From Candidatus Eiseniibacteriota bacterium (GTDB lineage Bacteria; ARS69), in the NCBI GenBank assembly GCA_052390515.1, contig JBQTGV010000120.1, positions 1 to 29,409 on the forward strand: a stretch of DNA of 29,409 bases. Direction: 5' to 3'. The position numbers and the translations under genes are program-made. The notes under the pieces were generated by a model. The model worked only from the letters and a program-made list of their open reading frames with translations. It made no database searches and was not told where the DNA came from. Shown here one piece after another: positions 1,173-7,124 of the stretch. Every line of letters starts with the position of its first letter. Within the stretch, counting starts at the first letter, position 1.

Positions 1173-1738
1173 CACGGCGAGTAACGAGTGAAGACGAAGT
1201 CACGGTCCTTCGCCAGCGCGTGGCAGGCAAAGCAGGTCTTGTGTACCGCTTCGTCGTCAGGCTTCCCATCGGTGAACTGAGCGAACCCCCAGCCGCCGGT
1301 CGCGGCGTACTTCTTCGAGTCCTTCACCATGAACTGGACATTCGTCGGCGGCCCCGCGACGAACGTCGTGGCCAGCAGCTTTTCGATCTGCTCGGGCGGC
1401 AGGCCGCGCTGCTCGGCATCAGCGCGAAAAACCGCGTTGTTCTCCTCGGACGTGACCTGCTGATAAGCGAGCCTGGCGATGATGGCCCCGTCCGGGAACG
1501 AGGTCATGCCCTCCTGGTAGGCGCGCATCGCCAGATCGTTGCCGAGCTTGGCGCGAATGTCGTTCACGGGGCTTCCGAGATTGGCGACGGAGATCAGCTT
1601 CCAATCACGGTATCCCGGTGGGATCTCGATCCCATAGATCGGGGCGGGCTCCGCGCTGCTCCGTTCCGACGCAAGCGCAGCGAGCCCGCCCACCAGGAGC
1701 GTCATAGTCGCAGGGAGGACGAAGGCGCAGCGCGTCAT
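1172..1738 (-). CDS. Cytochrome P460 / cytochrome c'-beta family periplasmic protein
   Basis: Signal peptide, PPGYRDW, FPDGAIIA, FMVKDSKKY..TGGWGF, C-terminal CFACH heme motif, DFVFT; start coupled to the epoxide hydrolase stop (TGATG). Confidence 0.88.
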   Translation of the reverse strand: MTRCAFVLPATMTLLVGGLAALASERSSAEPAPIYGIEIPPGYRDWKLISVANLGSPVNDIRAKLGNDLAMRAYQEGMTSFPDGAIIARLAYQQVTSEENNAVFRADAEQRGLPPEQIEKLLATTFVAGPPTNVQFMVKDSKKYAATGGWGFAQFTDGKPDDEAVHKTCFACHALAKDRDFVFTRYSP

Positions 1739-2940
1739 CAGCGCAGTACCTTGAACGCGGCCCGCACCTCGTCGGAGAAGAGCTCCGGTTCCTCCCACGC
1801 GGCGAAGTGGCCGCCGCGGTCGACCTCGTTGAAGTAGGCGAGGCCGGGGTAGACCGCTTCGACCCAGCTGCGCGGGGCGGCCCACAGCTCGCCGGGGAAC
1901 GTCGTGAAGGCGACGGGAACCTTGACCGGCGGCGGAGCCGCGCCGGACGCCAGGGCTGCGGCCAGAACCTGTCCGAACTCCCAGTACCACCGGGCGGCCG
2001 ATGCGCCGGTGCCCGTCAGCCAGTACAGCGTGATGTTGTCGACGATGCTCTCCCGGGTCAGACCGCCGATGGGCTTGTCGTCTACGAACGCGCGGGAGAT
2101 CTTGTAGTAGCTGTCCGTGTCGTGGTCGAGCAACCAGGCCGCGAGCCCGATGGGTGAATCCAGCAGGGAGTAGCCGATCGTCTGTGGCCGCGTGGATTGC
2201 TCCAGGAAGTAGGCGAAGCCAGTCGCCTTGAACGTCGCGACCGCGTTGAGCGCCGCGCGTTCCTGCTCGGTCTTCGCCGGCAGGTGATCGGCGATGCCCA
2301 ACGCTCCCGTGAGCAGGTTGACGTGGATGCCGAGCAGCCCCTTGGGCCCCTGGCGTCCCATCGCATCCGTGACGTCGGCGCCCACGTCACCTCCCTGGGC
2401 GACGTAGCGCGTGTAACCGAGGCGCTCCATCAGCTCCGCCCACGCGCGGGCGATGCGGCCGGACTCCCAGCCGAGCTCGGTCGGCTGGCCCGAGAAGCCG
2501 TAACCAGGCAAAGACGGCAGCACCAGGTGGAAGGCGTCGTCGGGAGTGCCGCCGTACTTGGTCGGGTCGGTCAGCGGACCGATGGTCTCGAGCAGCTCGA
2601 TGACCGAGCCGGGCCAGCCATGGGTCATGATCAACGGCAACGCGTTCTCATGCCGGGATCTGACGTGGATGAAGTGGATCTCCACTCCATCGATCTTGGT
2701 CGTGAACTGCGGCAGCGCGTTCAGTCGTGCCTCGCACGTGCGCCAGTCGTACTCGTTCGTCCAGAAGCGGGCGAGGTCCTGCAGCGTCTCCAGCTGCACG
2801 CCTTGGCTCCGATCCTCGACGAGCTCCTTGGTGGGCCAGCGCGTCGCCACAATGCGCCGGTGCAAGTCGTCGATCTGCTCCTCTGGAATGTCGACCTGGA
2901 AACTTCGAAGTTCGGCGGCAGTGCCGGCGGTGGTGCTCAT
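1738..2940 (-). CDS. Epoxide hydrolase (microsomal type, EHN + alpha/beta hydrolase)
   Basis: HGWPGS, LPGYGFS, QGGDVG nucleophile Asp, GGHFAAWEEP His; AGGAGG RBS. Confidence 0.95.
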   Translation of the reverse strand: MSTTAGTAAELRSFQVDIPEEQIDDLHRRIVATRWPTKELVEDRSQGVQLETLQDLARFWTNEYDWRTCEARLNALPQFTTKIDGVEIHFIHVRSRHENALPLIMTHGWPGSVIELLETIGPLTDPTKYGGTPDDAFHLVLPSLPGYGFSGQPTELGWESGRIARAWAELMERLGYTRYVAQGGDVGADVTDAMGRQGPKGLLGIHVNLLTGALGIADHLPAKTEQERAALNAVATFKATGFAYFLEQSTRPQTIGYSLLDSPIGLAAWLLDHDTDSYYKISRAFVDDKPIGGLTRESIVDNITLYWLTGTGASAARWYWEFGQVLAAALASGAAPPPVKVPVAFTTFPGELWAAPRSWVEAVYPGLAYFNEVDRGGHFAAWEEPELFSDEVRAAFKVLR

Positions 2941-2949
2941 GATGCCTCC

Positions 2950-3003
2950 TTAACGCAGCGATCTGAACGCAGCATCGATCTCGGTCGTGACGAGGTCCGG
3001 CTC
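2950..3003 (-). pseudogene. 3' remnant of a paralogous epoxide hydrolase
   Basis: EPDLVTTEIDAAFRSLR* aligns with the intact gene's end EPELFSDEVRAAFKVLR*; similarity is lost upstream of 3003. Confidence 0.7.
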
Positions 3004-3296
3004 GTGCCTGGTCGAACATGGTCTGATCCGCGACCGGGCACATCTTAGCTTCTTGCAGTCGGTCTACGGGACACAAACCACCCGAACGGCTTCTCCCAGT
3101 GTTGTGGTTCGGATGGCCGACGCCAGCAAGAACTGATAACAAGCGTGGCCTTCGAGGCGGGGGAACGGATCGACTCCTCGCGCGCCGATTCCATCATGAC
3201 CCCGAGGACGTGTTCTCGATCAAGAGTCCGAGGGCACGAATGCCGTCGGACCCTGCCATGCGCGTCGCCACCTTGAGCCTACAACCTGTCTCAGGC

Positions 3297-3398
3297 GCAT
3301 AACGTGGTGCTGCCTCGGCGGCGCTCACGGCCGAAGGCCACGTCCTGAGCAACGGTCGCGGCAAGTCGCTGTGAGCGGCGGCTTCAAGCGCGTTCTCC
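3297..3398 (-). mobile_element. Degenerate integron attC-like site
   Basis: Minus strand GGAGAAC-GCGCTTGAAGCCGCCGCTCACAGC...GCCGTGAGCG...CACCAC-GTTATGC: GTTRRRY-like R', internal stem CGCTCAC/GTGAGCG, decayed L' box. Confidence 0.5.
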
Positions 3399-3980
3399 AG
3401 GCCTTGCACGCGTTGCGAACGCATCGTCGCGAAGCCCAGTGCACGCGATCGAACGAATCACGAATCCCAACACCAGCCGGACCTTGCGCAACAAAGCACT
3501 CTCGATCATACGGTAGAAGGAGGGGGCCGTGGTTTGTTGCGGAGACGACGACGTGGTCGACCGCCGGGGGGACCCGCTCACGGACAAGCTCGTGAGGCAA
3601 CCGGGAGGAGCACGTCTGGGGTGATGACCCCGGTGGTTGCCTGAGCGAAACGATGGATCCCGCAGCGTTCGAATGGACGGCCGTCCCGCTCCCGAAAGAT
3701 CGGATCGACGCGCGTGCATCCTGCCCCTCGCCGAGCTCGTCACCAACTGGAGAGCGACAACGCTCAGCCCGTCCGTCGTGAGTGAGCCGGAACGAGGGCA
3801 CGAGTGAGTTTCTAGGGCTGCGGGGTGATGCCGCCCCGCACGGGCCGGCCACGCCGGGCCGCGACCCTCGATGCGTGTTTGGTGCAGGACACTGCCTGCA
3901 CCCCTGGGAAACGAAGTCGGGACTACCAGCCGATCCGCAGCGGGCGACGCCGACCAGGCGGACGGGAGGTGAACAACTAC

Positions 3981-4601
3981 CTATTGACCACTGGGGGCCT
4001 CATACGAGTTAGACACCTCCCCTTGCGTGGTGTGCGACGAGTCGGCGCGCGTGACTAGCGCTGTCCGGACGCGATCGAGTCCCTCATTGATCGGCCTCGA
4101 CAGGACGGTCGCGACCGATACCGAAAGCCACAGGGTGAACCAGCGTAAGCCGTGGACCGCGACAAAGCGGCCAACTCTCCCGCGTCCGAGCGGTCCGGCT
4201 GCGAGTCGTGCCGGCACGCCCCACCGCACCTCGGTAACGTGTATCAGAGGAATGTAGACGACTGGACAGAGCACGACGACCATCGTAGTCCGCCACGCGC
4301 CGCGGAACTCAAGCAACGAGTAGGCGAGGACACCAAGGACGGCCAGCGTCAGCAGCTGTCCGAACCAGAACACACGAAGGTTGCCCCTCGCGTCTGGTAG
4401 CCTCCACCACAACTCAAACCACACGAGGAGAGCCAGCGACAAGAATACGAACGAAAGTCCGTACGCGATCACTTTCAGCGGAAGTGATGCCGTGAACACG
4501 GTCAGAGCGGTAAACACACCGAGGACTGTAATGAGACGTTGATTCTCTTCTAAGAACGACGCTAGTGGCGACGATGGACGCGGGTTGTCGTTCTCTGGCA
4601 C
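3981..4601 (-). CDS. Integron-cassette multi-pass membrane protein, unknown function
   Basis: About 5 hydrophobic segments; likely GTG start at 4601 just after R' GTTAGAC; bounded by complementary GTTAGACAC/GTGTCTAAC; frame reads through R''. Confidence 0.75.
   Translation of the reverse strand: MPENDNPRPSSPLASFLEENQRLITVLGVFTALTVFTASLPLKVIAYGLSFVFLSLALLVWFELWWRLPDARGNLRVFWFGQLLTLAVLGVLAYSLLEFRGAWRTTMVVVLCPVVYIPLIHVTEVRWGVPARLAAGPLGRGRVGRFVAVHGLRWFTLWLSVSVATVLSRPINEGLDRVRTALVTRADSSHTTQGEVSNSYEAPSGQ
3990..4014. repeat. Cassette-end motif copy 1
   Basis: ACTGGGGGCCTCATACGAGTTAGAC, 22/25 identical to 5065-5089. Confidence 0.85.
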
Positions 4602-4616
4602 CGTCCTGTCTCCCGT

Positions 4617-4722
4617 GTCTAACGCTCTGCGCTTCGTGCGCGCCACCGCCGAAAGCCTACGCCCACAATCCCCATGACCGCAACGCCGGCGGTGGGCGGC
4701 GCATGCAGGCGCTTAGTTCGAC
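4617..4722 (-). mobile_element. Integron attC site (106 bp)
   Basis: Minus: GTCGAAC-TAAGCGCCTGCATGCGCCGCCCACCGCCG...CGGCGGTGGCGCGCACGAAGCGCAGAGC-GTTAGAC; R''/R' cores, paired arms with an extra base on the left arm; upstream ORF stops immediately after R''. Confidence 0.8.
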
Positions 4723-5078
4723 CGACCACGTGACTTTGGTTCGGGCCGCGCCGAGAGCCTCTCCCGAATCCCGTCGATCTCCGCTCGCACCTTCAGCAGG
4801 TCGTCACAGGTGGCCGCGGCACGGCCACCCTTGTGGAGCGCTGCGTGGCAGCGTGGACAAAGATCAACGAGGTTGCCAGGAGAGTTGTTGTCATGATTGC
4901 CATCCAGGTGATGAACATGAAGCTCGTCGCCCGCTTGGCAAACCAGACACTCGCGATGCCCCAGTGCTGGCGCAGCCACCAGTGGCCCGAGGACTTGCCT
5001 GATACGGTCCGTCTTCTTCCCCTGCACGGTGACTTTCCCAGTGTCAAAGACATTGACCACGCCGACCGGGGGCCTCAT
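4713..5078 (-). CDS. HNH endonuclease with partial N-terminal TBP-like domain, probably 5'-truncated cassette gene
   Basis: CLVC...LHVHHLDGNHDNNSPGNLVDLCPRCH; N-terminal VVNVFDTGKVTVQGK; ATG lies inside the repeated motif. Confidence 0.75.
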   Translation of the reverse strand: MRPPVGVVNVFDTGKVTVQGKKTDRIRQVLGPLVAAPALGHRECLVCQAGDELHVHHLDGNHDNNSPGNLVDLCPRCHAALHKGGRAAATCDDLLKVRAEIDGIRERLSARPEPKSRGRSN

Positions 5079-5089
5079 ACGTGTTAGGC
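5065..5089. repeat. Cassette-end motif copy 2
   Basis: ACCGGGGGCCTCATACGTGTTAGGC abutting the stop of the 5084-5584 gene. Confidence 0.85.
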
Positions 5090-5584
5090 CGCTCCACGTC
5101 GAATAGCCTCCACGGAGAGCCCGTAGTACGAGTTCGTCTTGCTCTCCTCCGCCCACAGGGCTCGGAACGGCTCGCGCTCAAAATACCAGAGCATGCCGGC
5201 ACACCATGATCGCCAAGCCGCGGGGTGGATGTATCCCTCCGAGAAGAAGAGGTATTCCTCAGCACAGAGATTGAAGTAGTCGACGATGGTCTGGCGATGT
5301 GTGCCCTCCAGCTTGGTGGAGTCCGCTTGGCCATCGATCTCGACGAGACGATCATTCAGCCCATCGTAGCGTCGGTTGAACTCGGTGAAGAGGTCCTTGA
5401 AGAGCGTCGTTTCCGAGAGCTTTTGTTGCTGCGCGAAGTAGCAGAAACCCAGAACTGCGACGATCACAGATCCGATGAGTGGCATGCGCTCGTCCCTGGC
5501 GAATAGGAGAATCGCCGCGATCCCAAGCCCTCCACCGAGAATGGCGATCGAGGCGTAGTGCCGGAAGATCACATGACGATTCAT
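5084..5584 (-). CDS. Integron-cassette 2-TM protein with helical C-terminal domain (DUF4760-like, tentative)
   Basis: GAGGAG upstream; FN.RYD.LN and DYFNLCAEEYL...GYI...W..W motifs; stop TAA inside R'' GCCTAAC; flanked by 10-bp complements GTTAGGCCGC/GCGGCCTAAC. Confidence 0.85.
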   Translation of the reverse strand: MNRHVIFRHYASIAILGGGLGIAAILLFARDERMPLIGSVIVAVLGFCYFAQQQKLSETTLFKDLFTEFNRRYDGLNDRLVEIDGQADSTKLEGTHRQTIVDYFNLCAEEYLFFSEGYIHPAAWRSWCAGMLWYFEREPFRALWAEESKTNSYYGLSVEAIRRGAA

Positions 5585-5607
5585 CTACTGATCTACTCCT
5601 CGTTGCG

Positions 5608-5685
5608 GCCTAACTAAGCTAAGACTTCAACTGGTCCGCCACCCGAGTCGTTCGGGAGGCAACGCCGAACAGTATAAGGACCGTC
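5608..5685 (-). mobile_element. Cluster of integron-like core sites upstream of the first cassette
   Basis: Minus: GGTCCTTATACT-GTTCGGC-gttgcct-CCCGAAC-35 nt-GTTAGGC; includes an inverted, diverged copy of the cassette-end motif. Confidence 0.5.
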
Positions 5686-5702
5686 GCCGCGAGCTGCCTC
5701 TT

Positions 5703-5791
5703 GACGAACGGACCGCGCGCCTGCTGCTTCCAGCGTCGGCCCACGACGACGACGAGTCTTCAGCAGATCCGAGCAAGCGCGGACGACAGAC
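5703..5791 (-). mobile_element. Degenerate attC-like site
   Basis: Right arm GCAGCAGGCGCGCGGTCC-GTTCGTC pairs with left arm GCGCTTGCT; R'' lacks AAC. Confidence 0.4.
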
Positions 5792-5825
5792 TGAATAAAC
5801 CGACGCTCGTCGACGCCACTGCATC

Positions 5826-7124
5826 CTACGCCGCGGGCGCCGCCCTCGCCACCGGCAAGTCCACCGGGTCCCTGAAGTGCTCCATCGCCGCGCCCACCGT
5901 GAAGAGCGAACCGGTCACGAATACCCAGCCGCCGCCGCCGGCAAGCCGCGCCGCCTCCTCGCACGCCGCCGCCGGATCGTCTTTCACGTGCGCCTCGATC
6001 CCCGCGGCCGTGAGCGCCGCCGCCGTCTCCTCGGCCTTCCGCGCGCGCACCGGATGCGGCGGAGTCACGGCCACGGCCCGCCGGAAGCGCCGCGCCAGCT
6101 CTTTCGCCATGCCGCCGAGATCCTTGTCGTCCAGCACGCCGAACACGGCGACCGAGCCGTCCGGCACTCCGAGCTGATCGAGGGCCGCACCGAAGGCGCG
6201 CATCCCGCCAAGGTTGTGCGCCACGTCGTACACGCGCACCGGAGTGCCCTCCACGCGCTGCAGGCGCCCCGGCCACCGCGTGTCCTCGAAGCCGGCGAGC
6301 AGTGCCTCCCGCACTTCCTCCCGCGGATCGAACGTCGCCGCTGCGTACGCGGCCACCGCCAGGTTGTCCGCCTGGTGCGGGCCGGCGAGCGGCACGCGCA
6401 CGCCGACCTCGCGGCTGCCCGGCAGTCGGAGCGAGACCTCCGACCCGTCCCAGCCGGACTCCAGCACGCGTACCTTCACTCCCGGATCGACGGCCAGGAA
6501 CGGCGCTCCACGCCGCGCGGCGATCATCTCGATGACCGCACGGGGCTCGGCGTCCATACGGCCGACGACGACAGGCACCGCCGGCTTCACGATGCCGGCC
6601 TTCTCCCCGGCGATCGTCGCGCGGTCCTCGCCGAGCGTCTTCGTATGGTCCAGATCGATCGAGGTGATCGCGGTCACGCGCGGGAAGCACACGTTCGTTG
6701 CGTCGAGCCGGCCGCCGAGACCGGTCTCCAGCACCGCGGTCTCGACCCCTCGCCGCCGGAAGTGCTCGAACGCGACCGCCGTCGTCACCTCGAAGAACGA
6801 GCCGTCGAACGAACCGTCCGGCCGCTCCATCGCCGCCAGGATGTCCGCCGCCTCGTCCTCCCGGATCGGCACGCCGTCGACGCGCACGCGCTCCGACCAG
6901 TGCACGAGGTGCGGAGAAGTCAGCAGGCCGACGCGGTACCCGGCGCGCCTGAGCGCCGCCGCCACCATCGCCGAGACGGAGCCCTTCCCGTTCGTACCGG
7001 CGACGTGCACCGCCGGCCAGTCCCGCTCGGGATGATCCAGTCGGTCCAGCAGCCGGGTGATCGGCGCGAGCCCGAGCTCGACGCTCTGGCCCTGCAGGGC
7101 GTTGAGGCGGTCGAAGACGTTCAC
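5826..7124 (-). CDS. folC: Folylpolyglutamate/dihydrofolate synthase
   Basis: HVAGTNGKGS, TSPHL..ER, ETGLGGRLDATN, EKAGI, WPGR, DVAHN, TGSLF. Confidence 0.97.
   Translation of the reverse strand: MNVFDRLNALQGQSVELGLAPITRLLDRLDHPERDWPAVHVAGTNGKGSVSAMVAAALRRAGYRVGLLTSPHLVHWSERVRVDGVPIREDEAADILAAMERPDGSFDGSFFEVTTAVAFEHFRRRGVETAVLETGLGGRLDATNVCFPRVTAITSIDLDHTKTLGEDRATIAGEKAGIVKPAVPVVVGRMDAEPRAVIEMIAARRGAPFLAVDPGVKVRVLESGWDGSEVSLRLPGSREVGVRVPLAGPHQADNLAVAAYAAATFDPREEVREALLAGFEDTRWPGRLQRVEGTPVRVYDVAHNLGGMRAFGAALDQLGVPDGSVAVFGVLDDKDLGGMAKELARRFRRAVAVTPPHPVRARKAEETAAALTAAGIEAHVKDDPAAACEEAARLAGGGGWVFVTGSLFTVGAAMEHFRDPVDLPVARAAPAA

Follow-up and report, generated by a model that had tools for sequence, protein, structure and literature searches.

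Two integron cassettes of a Candidatus Eiseniibacteriota genome very probably end against the remains of an IS1111-type insertion sequence

The stretch of DNA studied here, which we call the window, comprises 29,409 nucleotides (nt) of contig JBQTGV010000120.1 from the assembly of a Candidatus Eiseniibacteriota bacterium (GCA_052390515.1; 223 contigs, 4.27 Mb; the window contig is C120, and other C-numbers denote other contigs of the same assembly). It carries a short integron cassette array in which, along the minus strand, an attI-like region is followed by a cassette that we call A, by a truncated cassette with an HNH endonuclease gene and a normal attC site, and by a cassette B; our subject is the motif against which cassettes A and B both end. 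At a probability of roughly 0.88, we take this motif to be the right end of an insertion sequence (IS) of the IS110 family and IS1111 type, lying antisense to the cassettes, that is, a relic and not a new type of recombination site. The boxes that delimit the array (GTTAGRC on one strand, GYCTAAC on the other) occur only four times in the 29.4 kb, at 4008, 4617, 5083 and 5608 (all within 4008-5614), and pair as integron cassette boundaries around two segments bearing open reading frames (ORFs), TTAGAC...GTCTAAC and TTAGGC...GCCTAAC; shuffled versions of the window held 1.67 such boxes on average, and 10 of 100 shuffles reached four. The attI-like region covers 5615-5800 of the minus strand (its end is approximate) and contains CGGTCCTTATACTG, with a -10-like TATACT, and GGACCAGTTGAAGTCTTA before GTT, while a GTTAGGC box at 5608-5614 (minus) forms its junction with cassette A. 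The gene of cassette A (5084-5584, minus) encodes 166 amino acids (aa) with a faint hint of SLATT_6 (E 0.055), and its stop codon lies inside the GCCTAAC that is the R'' box of this cassette (5083-5089, minus). The HNH gene, devoid of its 5' part, occupies 4713-5066 (minus) and has a weak Pfam HNH match; the attC of its cassette (4617-4722, minus) is canonical, running from GTCGAAC through paired arms to GTTAGAC, with R' joined to cassette B and 66% of its positions in one spanning stem in a constrained fold. The gene of cassette B (3981-4601, minus; the ORF runs from 4646 or 4601 to 3981) has no Pfam match and, in our own reading, likely starts at a GTG near 4601, after a GGGAGA-type ribosome site; the R'' box of cassette B, GTCTAAC, lies at 4008-4014 (minus).

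The core of the motif is a 14-mer, GGGGGCCTCATACG, found exactly on the plus strand at 3993-4006 and 5068-5081, each time followed by one variable base and then by GTTAGAC (4008-4014) or GTTAGGC (5083-5089). The composite GGGGGCCTCATACG-N-GTTAGRC occurs exactly twice in the window, both times against the R'' box of a minus-strand cassette; when up to three mismatches were allowed in the 14-mer, five matches were obtained in the window, the three inexact ones (at 6344, 12997 and 17793) being weak, with three mismatches each, and far from the exact copies. In full, the plus strand reads ...CTATTGACCACTGGGGGCCTCATACG-A-GTTAGAC at 3981-4014 and ...ACATTGACCAC-GCCGAC-CGGGGGCCTCATACG-T-GTTAGGC at 5050-5089, which corresponds on the minus strand to GYCTAAC-N-CGTATGAGGCCCCC-R-GT...GTGGTCAAT. 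An earlier note on this DNA had pointed out that both cassettes end in this common motif without a fold-back partner, that ATTGACCAC adjoins it in one copy and lies 6 nt away in the other, and that a fixed sequence is here joined one base before GTT to variable cassette ends, facing against the genes. All of this is borne out: the 14-mer is exact in both copies, ATTGACCAC lies at 3983-3991, directly adjoining the 14-mer, and at 5052-5060, six bases further off, and no complementary partner of the 14-mer was found nearby on the same strand, in the window, or in the genome. The stretch that precedes the next R' (4624-4650) is likewise not complementary to the 14-mer.

Beyond the window, an 11-mer core of the motif, GGCCTCATACG, is exact at six places in the assembly, and a seventh, homologous copy on C188 has one mismatch; at up to one mismatch there are 35 matches in the assembly, the other 28 of which fall in unrelated sequence. 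At five of the seven places (window 3996, C66, C101, C221 and C188), the core forms the right-hand tip of a conserved repeat that is about 440 nt long and non-coding. The window copy of this repeat is 87-91% identical to the other four (86.7% over 443 nt to that of C101 by BLAST), and the copies, which differ by 9-13%, look old; contigs C66 and C221 both start and end within the repeat. Together with two short stubs (window 5065-5081, and one on C36) and a metagenome contig, L021, this makes eight junctions (in our sequence labels C101, C188, C66, C221 and C36 are L001 to L005, in that order). At all eight the similarity stops after ...CATACG, and the sequence beyond is N-GTTAGAC, N-GTTAGGC (three junctions), N-GTTGGGC, N-GTTTGGC, N-GTTGGGG or N-GCTAGCT. 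The right end lies one base from the complement of an R'' box at both window copies and on C66, C101, C221 and C36, and the cassette ORFs at those junctions run on the opposite strand and stop within or next to R''. On C188, the stub (6752-6868) adjoins GCTAGCT and not a GTT box.

A search of the genome and its relatives, suggested in the earlier note, was productive for the genome only, as the pattern GGCCTYATAMGNGTT gave six matches there (none with the reversed control) and none in 11 other genomes of the phylum. BLAST did not find the repeat in those 11 genomes either, and BLAST of the stub against 60 other genomes gave no real match, only one of 25 nt (E 3.4e-4) in genome G026. A 21-mer from the motif region had no match in public genome contigs, whereas the gapped pattern retrieved four stretches in genome contigs, none of them homologous, and six in metagenome contigs, of which only L021 is homologous; the other five were set aside as coding-sequence coincidences.

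These junctions bear directly on a reading in which the motif would be the R''-side arm of the genome's own attC family, the insertion sequence beginning further in, to the left of GGGGGCC. Two loci, window 5065-5081 and C36 3677-3693, do keep a nearly equal short length next to R'', and the short canonical attC of C188 also starts with GCCTAAC-ACG. However, the 14-mer is invariant at seven of the eight junctions (C188 having one mismatch) while the adjoining R'' box varies at four of its seven positions, and an invariant block beside a variable R'' box argues for the end of a mobile element and not for an attC arm. Neither canonical attC of the assembly (4617-4722, and C188 3888-3948) has CGTATGAGG, nor is there a complementary arm anywhere, in agreement with the earlier suggestion that the motif differs from an ordinary attC arm; this comparison rests on two sites. 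A first, stricter attC search had returned one spurious match, and a looser one 29 candidates, among which only these two were convincing and C27 4175-4303 was possible. The C188 site is a textbook attC of 61 nt (GCCTAAC-ACG...GTTAGCT) belonging to a short cassette with two small ORFs at 3239-3948. Overall, we regard an attC arm as quite unlikely, also in light of the ends of full-length relatives described below.

Copy 1 of the stub extends on the plus strand from 3519 or 3569 to 4006 (440-490 nt) and would represent the non-coding region 3' of a transposase gene plus the right end; it holds neither a transposase gene nor a left end. By BLAST, it is homologous to the other copies from 3569 onwards, and a 10-nt match to C101, GAAGGAGGGG, suggests that it may reach back to about 3519. 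Its motif (3993-4006, plus) can be read, by analogy with IS1111 elements, as a right subterminal inverted repeat, GGGGGCCTCAT, plus a 3-nt terminal extension, ACG, that ends one base from the R'' box of cassette B. A -35-like hexamer, TTGACC, lies at 3984-3989 (plus), 17 nt from the last base of the element, and by the same analogy could be the right-end half of a circle-junction promoter. The frame of cassette B runs through R'' into this stub and stops at a TAG (3983..3981), so that the C-terminus of the encoded protein (...LTRMRPPVVNR) stems from foreign sequence. Copy 2 (5065-5081, plus) consists of ACCGGGGGCCTCATACG alone, 17 nt that agree exactly with the tip of the right end of the C101 type. 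To the left of copy 1, some 580 nt (window 2941-3519) separate the stub from an epoxide-hydrolase-like gene (1738..2940, minus); this segment matches no family and is not repeated anywhere else in the genome.

The identity of the repeat is indicated by what precedes it in less eroded copies. IS1111-type elements carry a gene for a DEDD (RuvC-like) recombinase, recognised by PF01548 and PF02371 or by NF033542. Immediately before the repeat, C101 and L021 have ...LGRAVFHMLKRRKAFDM..FLAS*, an open frame ending in ...LSILAHRLGRAVFHMLKRRKAFDMKIFLAS*, which in both retains the final 25-43 codons of an IS110 transposase; the piece of L021 matches positions 311-342 of the 343 of NCBIfam NF033542 (IS110 family RNA-guided transposase) at E 0.0056. 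In a tblastn search of plasmids with this remnant, 29 records were matched at the 3' ends of genes, and 19 of the 25 matches listed fall under coding sequences (CDSs) annotated as IS110 family or transposase. With plasmid transposases as queries, the only plausible tblastn match in the genome was C101 2266-2364 (33 codons, E 0.027). On C101 (2240-2900), the stub beyond the transposase remnant abuts a plus-strand frame resembling the middle of a larger gene; our unverified impression is that this is a DNA-binding protein of the Schlafen/AlbA_2 type, in which case the deletion ran into a chromosomal gene.

The best tblastn match, a plasmid of Candidatus Manganitrophus (Nitrospirota; L030), carries a whole element with a frameshifted gene containing PF01548 and PF02371, and its non-coding region aligns with our repeat right up to the end in conserved blocks (CTGCCCCTC, AACTGG, CGAGGGCAC, TTTCTAGG, GTGTTTGGTGCAGGAC..CCTGCACC, AAGTCGG and TTGAC). 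Two other plasmids carry the same Nitrospirota locus with the same flanks, so its ends are not definable from copies. Intact relatives of about 1.58-1.66 kb with a common plan, their CDSs annotated as IS110 family transposase, are present on the Vibrio campbellii plasmid pVIBHAR (L031), the Catenovulum plasmid NZ_CP109967 (L040) and three further Alteromonadales plasmids (L042-L044); in L041, which is cut by an IS3 element, the right end was not found. The left end of the relatives is of the type GATACTN-ATTGAGCC, that is, GATACTN followed by AT(T)GAGCCTTCTCC; GAACGYCTAACTGG stands about 25 nt after the transposase stop, and the gene is followed by about 460 nt of non-coding sequence with CCTC.ATATGTGTTTG and a hairpin. 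On C101 and L021, the distance from the transposase stop to the element end is about 480-520 nt, and the non-coding region is on the right-end side. The right end of the relatives consists of TTGACN plus 16-17 nt ending in AGAAGGCTCAT-ATG (the spacer is 17 nt in L030, L031, L042, L043 and, as read from the sequence, L040, and 16 nt in L044), and GATACTN plus AT(T)GAGCCTTCT pairs with AGAAGGCTCAT plus ATG as an inverted repeat that in L030, L031, L043 and L044 has 8-11 matching bases after a 1-nt offset. Across the circle junction, these ends would bring together TTGACN-16/17-GATACT.

Also the surroundings of the relatives recall those of the window. The right flank of five of the six is T-GTTATGT, T-GTTAGGT (twice), T-GTTAGGA or T-GTTCGGC, with a 22-nt repeat of the element end intervening before T-GTTAGGT in L040. 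An annotated ORF on the opposite strand starts at the right flank in L031, L040, L042 and L044, and beyond the left end of L042, L044 and L040 the sequence reads, in our judgement, like the remainder of an attC that closes with GTTAGGT, GTTATGC or GTTATAT, after which the next gene starts. The repeat in L040 (at about 2845-2894) consists of the last 22 nt of the right end (GACCTCGGGGAGGCTCATATG-T) twice in tandem, and offers an independent case of a right-end stub that is very short and lies beside R''. In passages of PMC3001079 and PMC11187229, IS1111-attC elements are described as inserting near the 5' end of attC sites, antisense to the cassette array; according to the latter source, as excerpted, the inverted repeats of IS1111 elements are subterminal, 7 nt lying outside them at the left end and 3 nt at the right, and a promoter forms across the circle junction from a -35 box in the right end and a -10 box in the left end. 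In the IS1111 group, these repeats measure 7-17 bp. If the ends of the relatives are defined as we propose, they yield TTGACN-17-GATACT and extensions close to the 7-nt/3-nt rule (PMC11187229, excerpt), which further disfavours the placing of the motif within attC.

The earlier note had itself favoured an attI-like or new recombination site that captures cassettes through their R'' end, with inverted integration. In support of it, one can cite the fixed half joined next to GTT to variable cassette ends at eight junctions, the fact that GCCTCATAC-G-N-GTTAGGC can be read (by us, at least) as an imperfect inverted box pair, and the copy on C66, the contig with the only gene resembling intI. That the junction was made by site-specific recombination at the R'' end is a part of the proposal that we retain. 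The fixed half, however, is not confined to a short site but continues for 440-550 nt into a transposase remnant, and the same end is found on IS110-type elements of unrelated plasmids, where the annotation of the stretches fetched lists no integrase. What was thought to be a capture site matches the right end of an IS1111-type element, while the attI-like sequence of the genome is a different one, the region of about 200 nt that in the window spans 5615 to about 5800, is conserved at three loci, is homologous to the region 3' of intI on C66, and is unrelated to the motif. A search with TIGR02249 revealed one integron-integrase-like gene in the assembly (C66 1065-2123, minus), split over three frames with a SAM-like N-terminus, a middle part and a catalytic C-terminus scoring 63, 166 and 152 bits; no piece alone exceeds the cut-off of 265 bits, and the gene is either a pseudogene with two frameshifts or the product of assembly or frame errors. 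On the minus strand of C66 the order is intI-like gene, conserved region of about 200 nt, GTTGGGC, a cassette of GIY-YIG type, GCCCAAC-C and stub, so the expectation that the motif would adjoin intI fails on the only contig with such a gene: a cassette and the attI-like region stand between the two, and the motif is on the far side. The cassette ORFs, their ribosome sites and the placement of stop codons in R'' fit cassettes in normal orientation and not inverted capture. An undescribed class of site is not needed either, as an attC-targeting kind of insertion sequence is already known (PMC3001079 and PMC11187229, each in part). We consider capture through the R'' end very unlikely.

The three loci of the attI-like region are window 5615-5800, C66 882-1065 and C221 2990-3188, each heading an array of one or two cassettes that ends in an insertion-sequence stub. 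The region has direct CTTACAC repeats, a TATACT box and GTTGAAGTCTTA before GTT. Upstream of it, an intI-like gene is present only on C66, the window having a gene resembling a Mur ligase or FolC and C221 a gene for a transporter of the major facilitator superfamily.

The truncated HNH cassette next to copy 2 supplies evidence of a different kind. To the left of the last 17 nt, the element is replaced in copy 2 by the truncated HNH gene, whose two homologues in the database (P0001 and P0002; 146 and 151 aa) have 39 more N-terminal residues. The BLASTP alignment begins where G-V-V-N of the window faces G-I-V-N of the homologue, at residue 40 of P0001, and a whole-genome search placed homologue residues 39-143 at 4752-5066. 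A frame of 147 aa that spans the motif would equal the homologues in length and was considered as a full-length HNH gene; we rejected it because it aligns locally only from residue 32 on and lacks nine residues of a conserved stretch. Given that the HNH gene is truncated and a 17-nt tip stands at R'', the attC of cassette A must have been hit by the element. An ATG inside the stub (5078..5076) is in frame with the truncated gene, and the HNH open frame (4713-5156, minus) reaches as far as a GTG at 5156 and there overlaps the last part of the 166-aa ORF. No ribosome-binding site was seen for this frame, and the gene is therefore probably dead.

The non-coding region of the element offers some hints as to how its insertion may have been directed. 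A segment of copy 1, CCTCGATGCGTGTTTGG (3866-3882, plus), mimics the junction of the right end with its target, the lineage consensus being CCTC-N-ATACG-T-GTTTGG, from which the window copy departs by a G in place of A. The relatives share the segment in the form CCTC.ATA(C/A/T)GTGTTTG, followed by a hairpin. In the lineage of the window, where the element ends in ...CATACG, the segment is ATACG-T-GTTTGG in three of five copies (C101, L021 and C221), the exceptions being ATGCG in the window and ATACC on C66; in the Nitrospirota lineage (element end ...TATAAG) it is ATAAG-T-GTTTGG in 3/3 copies, and in the marine lineage (element end ...CATATG) ATATG-T-GTTTG in 5/5. The middle triplet of the segment and the terminal triplet of the element thus co-vary in the three lineages (ACG, AAG and ATG), and we regard the segment as a candidate guide segment of the element's RNA. 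As it matches across the whole junction, a target that itself contained CATACG-T-GTT would be compatible with the sequence, a point in favour of an attC arm. Just after the transposase stop codon, the relatives also have a conserved GYCTAAC, the complement of the GTTAGRC of the target, with about 330 nt between the two target-like segments; in the window copy this part, left of 3569, is gone or replaced. A GTCTAAC to the left of the C101 copy was considered as a flanking R'' and dismissed, since it lies within the element and all relatives conserve it. Guide-like segment and GYCTAAC together would fit RNA-guided recognition of the element end and the target.

Directly 3' of the guide-like segment lies a hairpin, GGTGCAGG-loop-CCTGCACC (3881-3902, plus). 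Single-sequence folds predict a hairpin there in 13 of 13 sequences, which amount to only three independent lineages and to predictions rather than covariation statistics; the stem sequences differ among the three lineages, and loop-only differences are seen among the genome's own copies. RNAalifold on a MAFFT alignment of the 13 right-end regions returned no consensus structure, because the loops misalign, and we regard the conservation of the hairpin as suggestive. Hairpins whose differences are confined to loops or are compensatory would also befit a remnant of a group IIC-attC intron, or of another structured RNA gene in attC sites, and such introns share the geometry seen here, the 5' end of attC in antisense orientation (PMC3001079, excerpt). 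Against this origin, an Rfam scan of window 2500-6200 at E up to 1 gave neither a group II intron nor a match to any other family, although the same method did detect a group II intron elsewhere in L031; the GUGYG/AY ends are lacking, and the upstream remnant belongs to an IS110 transposase and not to a reverse transcriptase. We find an intron origin hardly credible. In the four relatives' loci scanned, Rfam found nothing in the non-coding regions, its matches elsewhere being the group II intron of L031, with an overlapping and lower-scoring group II-D5, and a sub-threshold STnc400 in L042. The L031 match (Intron_gpII, domains V/VI; 4961-5037, minus; 66.7 bits, E 1.5e-11) is about 1.9 kb from the IS110-type element, and may represent a group II intron of the same cassette region.

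A site-specific insertion sequence and its decay could have produced the window as follows. An IS1111-type element would have inserted twice, one base after R'' (the 5' end of attC) and antisense to the cassettes, its target being a variable base plus GTTAGRC, the complement of R''. Through later deletions, the element would have lost its recombinase gene and left end, and each attC its remainder, so that only the right-hand part of the element stayed behind, with a length of about 440-490 nt at cassette B and of 17 nt at cassette A; at copy 2, the deletion would have run into the HNH cassette, taking the element body, the rest of the attC of cassette A and the first ~117 nt of the HNH cassette. 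An intact element would be expected to have a left end of 7 nt plus a ATGAGGCCCCC-like repeat, and an uninterrupted target attC to carry no CGTATGAGGCC after R''. The homology of the stubs to elements with an IS110 transposase, the geometry of the junctions and the truncation of the HNH gene are observed; that the insertions were RNA-guided and that the rest of the element was lost by ordinary deletion we infer.

We acknowledge that several findings weigh against this interpretation. The matches of the transposase remnants are weak (E 0.0056 and 0.027) because they are short, and the assembly has no transposase gene (PF02371/Transposase_20 gave 0 matches, and tblastn only the C101 remnant). 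No left end was found in the 223 contigs, about 95% complete; the lineage's own left end, subterminal repeat pair and junction promoter are accordingly modelled on relatives that share with it only blocks of similarity, and whose inverted repeat needs a 1-nt offset and is poor in L042. The assembly is fragmented, however, and because binning often leaves repeats out, there may be intact copies that it does not contain. No family of Rfam 15 recognises the non-coding region, and the fold of the whole-length stub is no better than that of shuffled sequences (z = -1.67 and +0.66). At copy 2, GTGGTCAAT (5060..5052) encodes V-V-N where the homologues have I-V-N, yet it equals the next nine bases of the element, six nucleotides out of register; if the HNH codons are native, such a match is beyond chance (about 1e-4 by our estimate), and the one attribution we can offer for an otherwise unexplained identity is a patch of microhomology at which the deletion joint formed. 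Lastly, all detectable stubs keep the right end and none a left part, which simple random decay does not predict.

Very short right-end stubs do recur, at window copy 2, on C36 and as the 22-nt tandem tip in L040. It is conceivable, although we think it improbable, that they are products of the element's own RNA-guided recombinase instead of random debris, and that the element is an active remodeller of cassette arrays. The junction between right end and R'' could itself be a substrate, because the internal segment matches it and co-varies with it. If this were true, recombination at the junction would delete or duplicate adjacent DNA and fuse cassettes (compare the truncated HNH gene), and the right end would be kept in all stubs for a mechanistic reason. 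On C36 (3650-3697), GCCTAAC adjoins the 17-nt stub at 3677-3693, where GGCCTCA is in part directly duplicated; a GNAT-like ORF has its stop codon within the stub, and a fragment of a gene resembling short-chain dehydrogenases ends at R'' (both names come from reading the sequence only). On C101, the cassette before the stub (1467-1790) contains an ORF for a BrnA-type antitoxin (Pfam PF14384) and, by our reading, the end of a putative BrnT-like partner, which would make it a toxin-antitoxin cassette. Toxin-antitoxin cassettes are common in chromosomal integrons.

Our finding is best placed beside elements of the IS1111-attC group, which includes ISPa21, ISPst6 and ISKpn4 (Tetu & Holmes 2008; Post & Hall 2009). 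In common with them, our element shows insertion at a specific site close to the 5' end of attC and in antisense to the cassettes, an IS110-family recombinase (here deduced from relatives and remnants) and a long downstream non-coding region, and what we describe is, accordingly, the known attC-targeting kind of element in an unusual host. The difference is that this host belongs to a small high-GC phylum (12 species genomes) and not to Pseudomonas or Enterobacterales, and that the nearest full-length relatives found are on plasmids of marine Gammaproteobacteria and Nitrospirota. When the Vibrio transposase was searched by tblastn against 72,556 plasmids at E up to 1e-30, 32 records were obtained, mostly from marine Gammaproteobacteria, Burkholderiaceae and Manganitrophus, none from Enterobacterales. 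A single Pseudomonas aeruginosa plasmid record (33% identity) was considered as a named IS1111-attC member and discarded, there being no integron gene among its annotated neighbours. This distribution hints that members on clinical plasmids are not closely related, and at a clade separate from ISPa21, ISPst6 and ISKpn4 and, as a weaker form of the remodelling proposal, at a second IS110-family clade, apart from ISPa21 and ISPst6, that would target attC across several phyla. Degenerate footprints, such as the window displays, were reportedly noticed by Tetu and Holmes in 2008 at the ends of chromosomal cassette arrays in Pseudomonas.

A further comparison is with elements that use a seekRNA or bridge RNA. 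The non-coding region downstream of the gene of IS1111 elements yields a seekRNA (PMC11187229, excerpt), and the bridge RNA is located in the right end (PMC11208160, as far as the excerpt goes). Like these, our element has its non-coding region on the right-end side, a presumed subterminal repeat that extends only briefly on the right, a -35-like hexamer in the right end, spaced from the tip as in a promoter, and short segments matching the target (GYCTAAC just after the stop, CGTGTTTGG further on); unlike the seekRNAs of 70-100 nt reported in the excerpt of PMC11187229, its non-coding region measures about 460-520 nt. Group IIC-attC introns share the target region and the antisense orientation in cassette arrays (PMC3001079, excerpt), but here intron RNA domains and a reverse transcriptase are lacking. 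Like attC and attI, the motif abuts a GTTRRRY/RYYYAAC box, where IntI also acts; unlike attC, it has no paired second arm, and unlike attI, it is on the distal side of the cassettes and away from intI, next to which this genome conserves a different sequence.

Cassettes such as those described here would be called attC-less by integron finders that rely on the attC fold, or the array would be missed altogether. The tip of an insertion sequence, that is, a right repeat plus 3 nt followed by N-GTTRRRY, explains such cassette ends without a new site, and leaves the understanding of integron recombination itself unchanged. If our interpretation is correct, the interplay of IS1111-type elements and integrons extends to a poorly sampled phylum, the relatives on marine and Nitrospirota plasmids having one end architecture in common, and the co-variation of the terminal triplet with the internal segment provides a modest clue to how this clade's guide RNA may read both its own end and the target.

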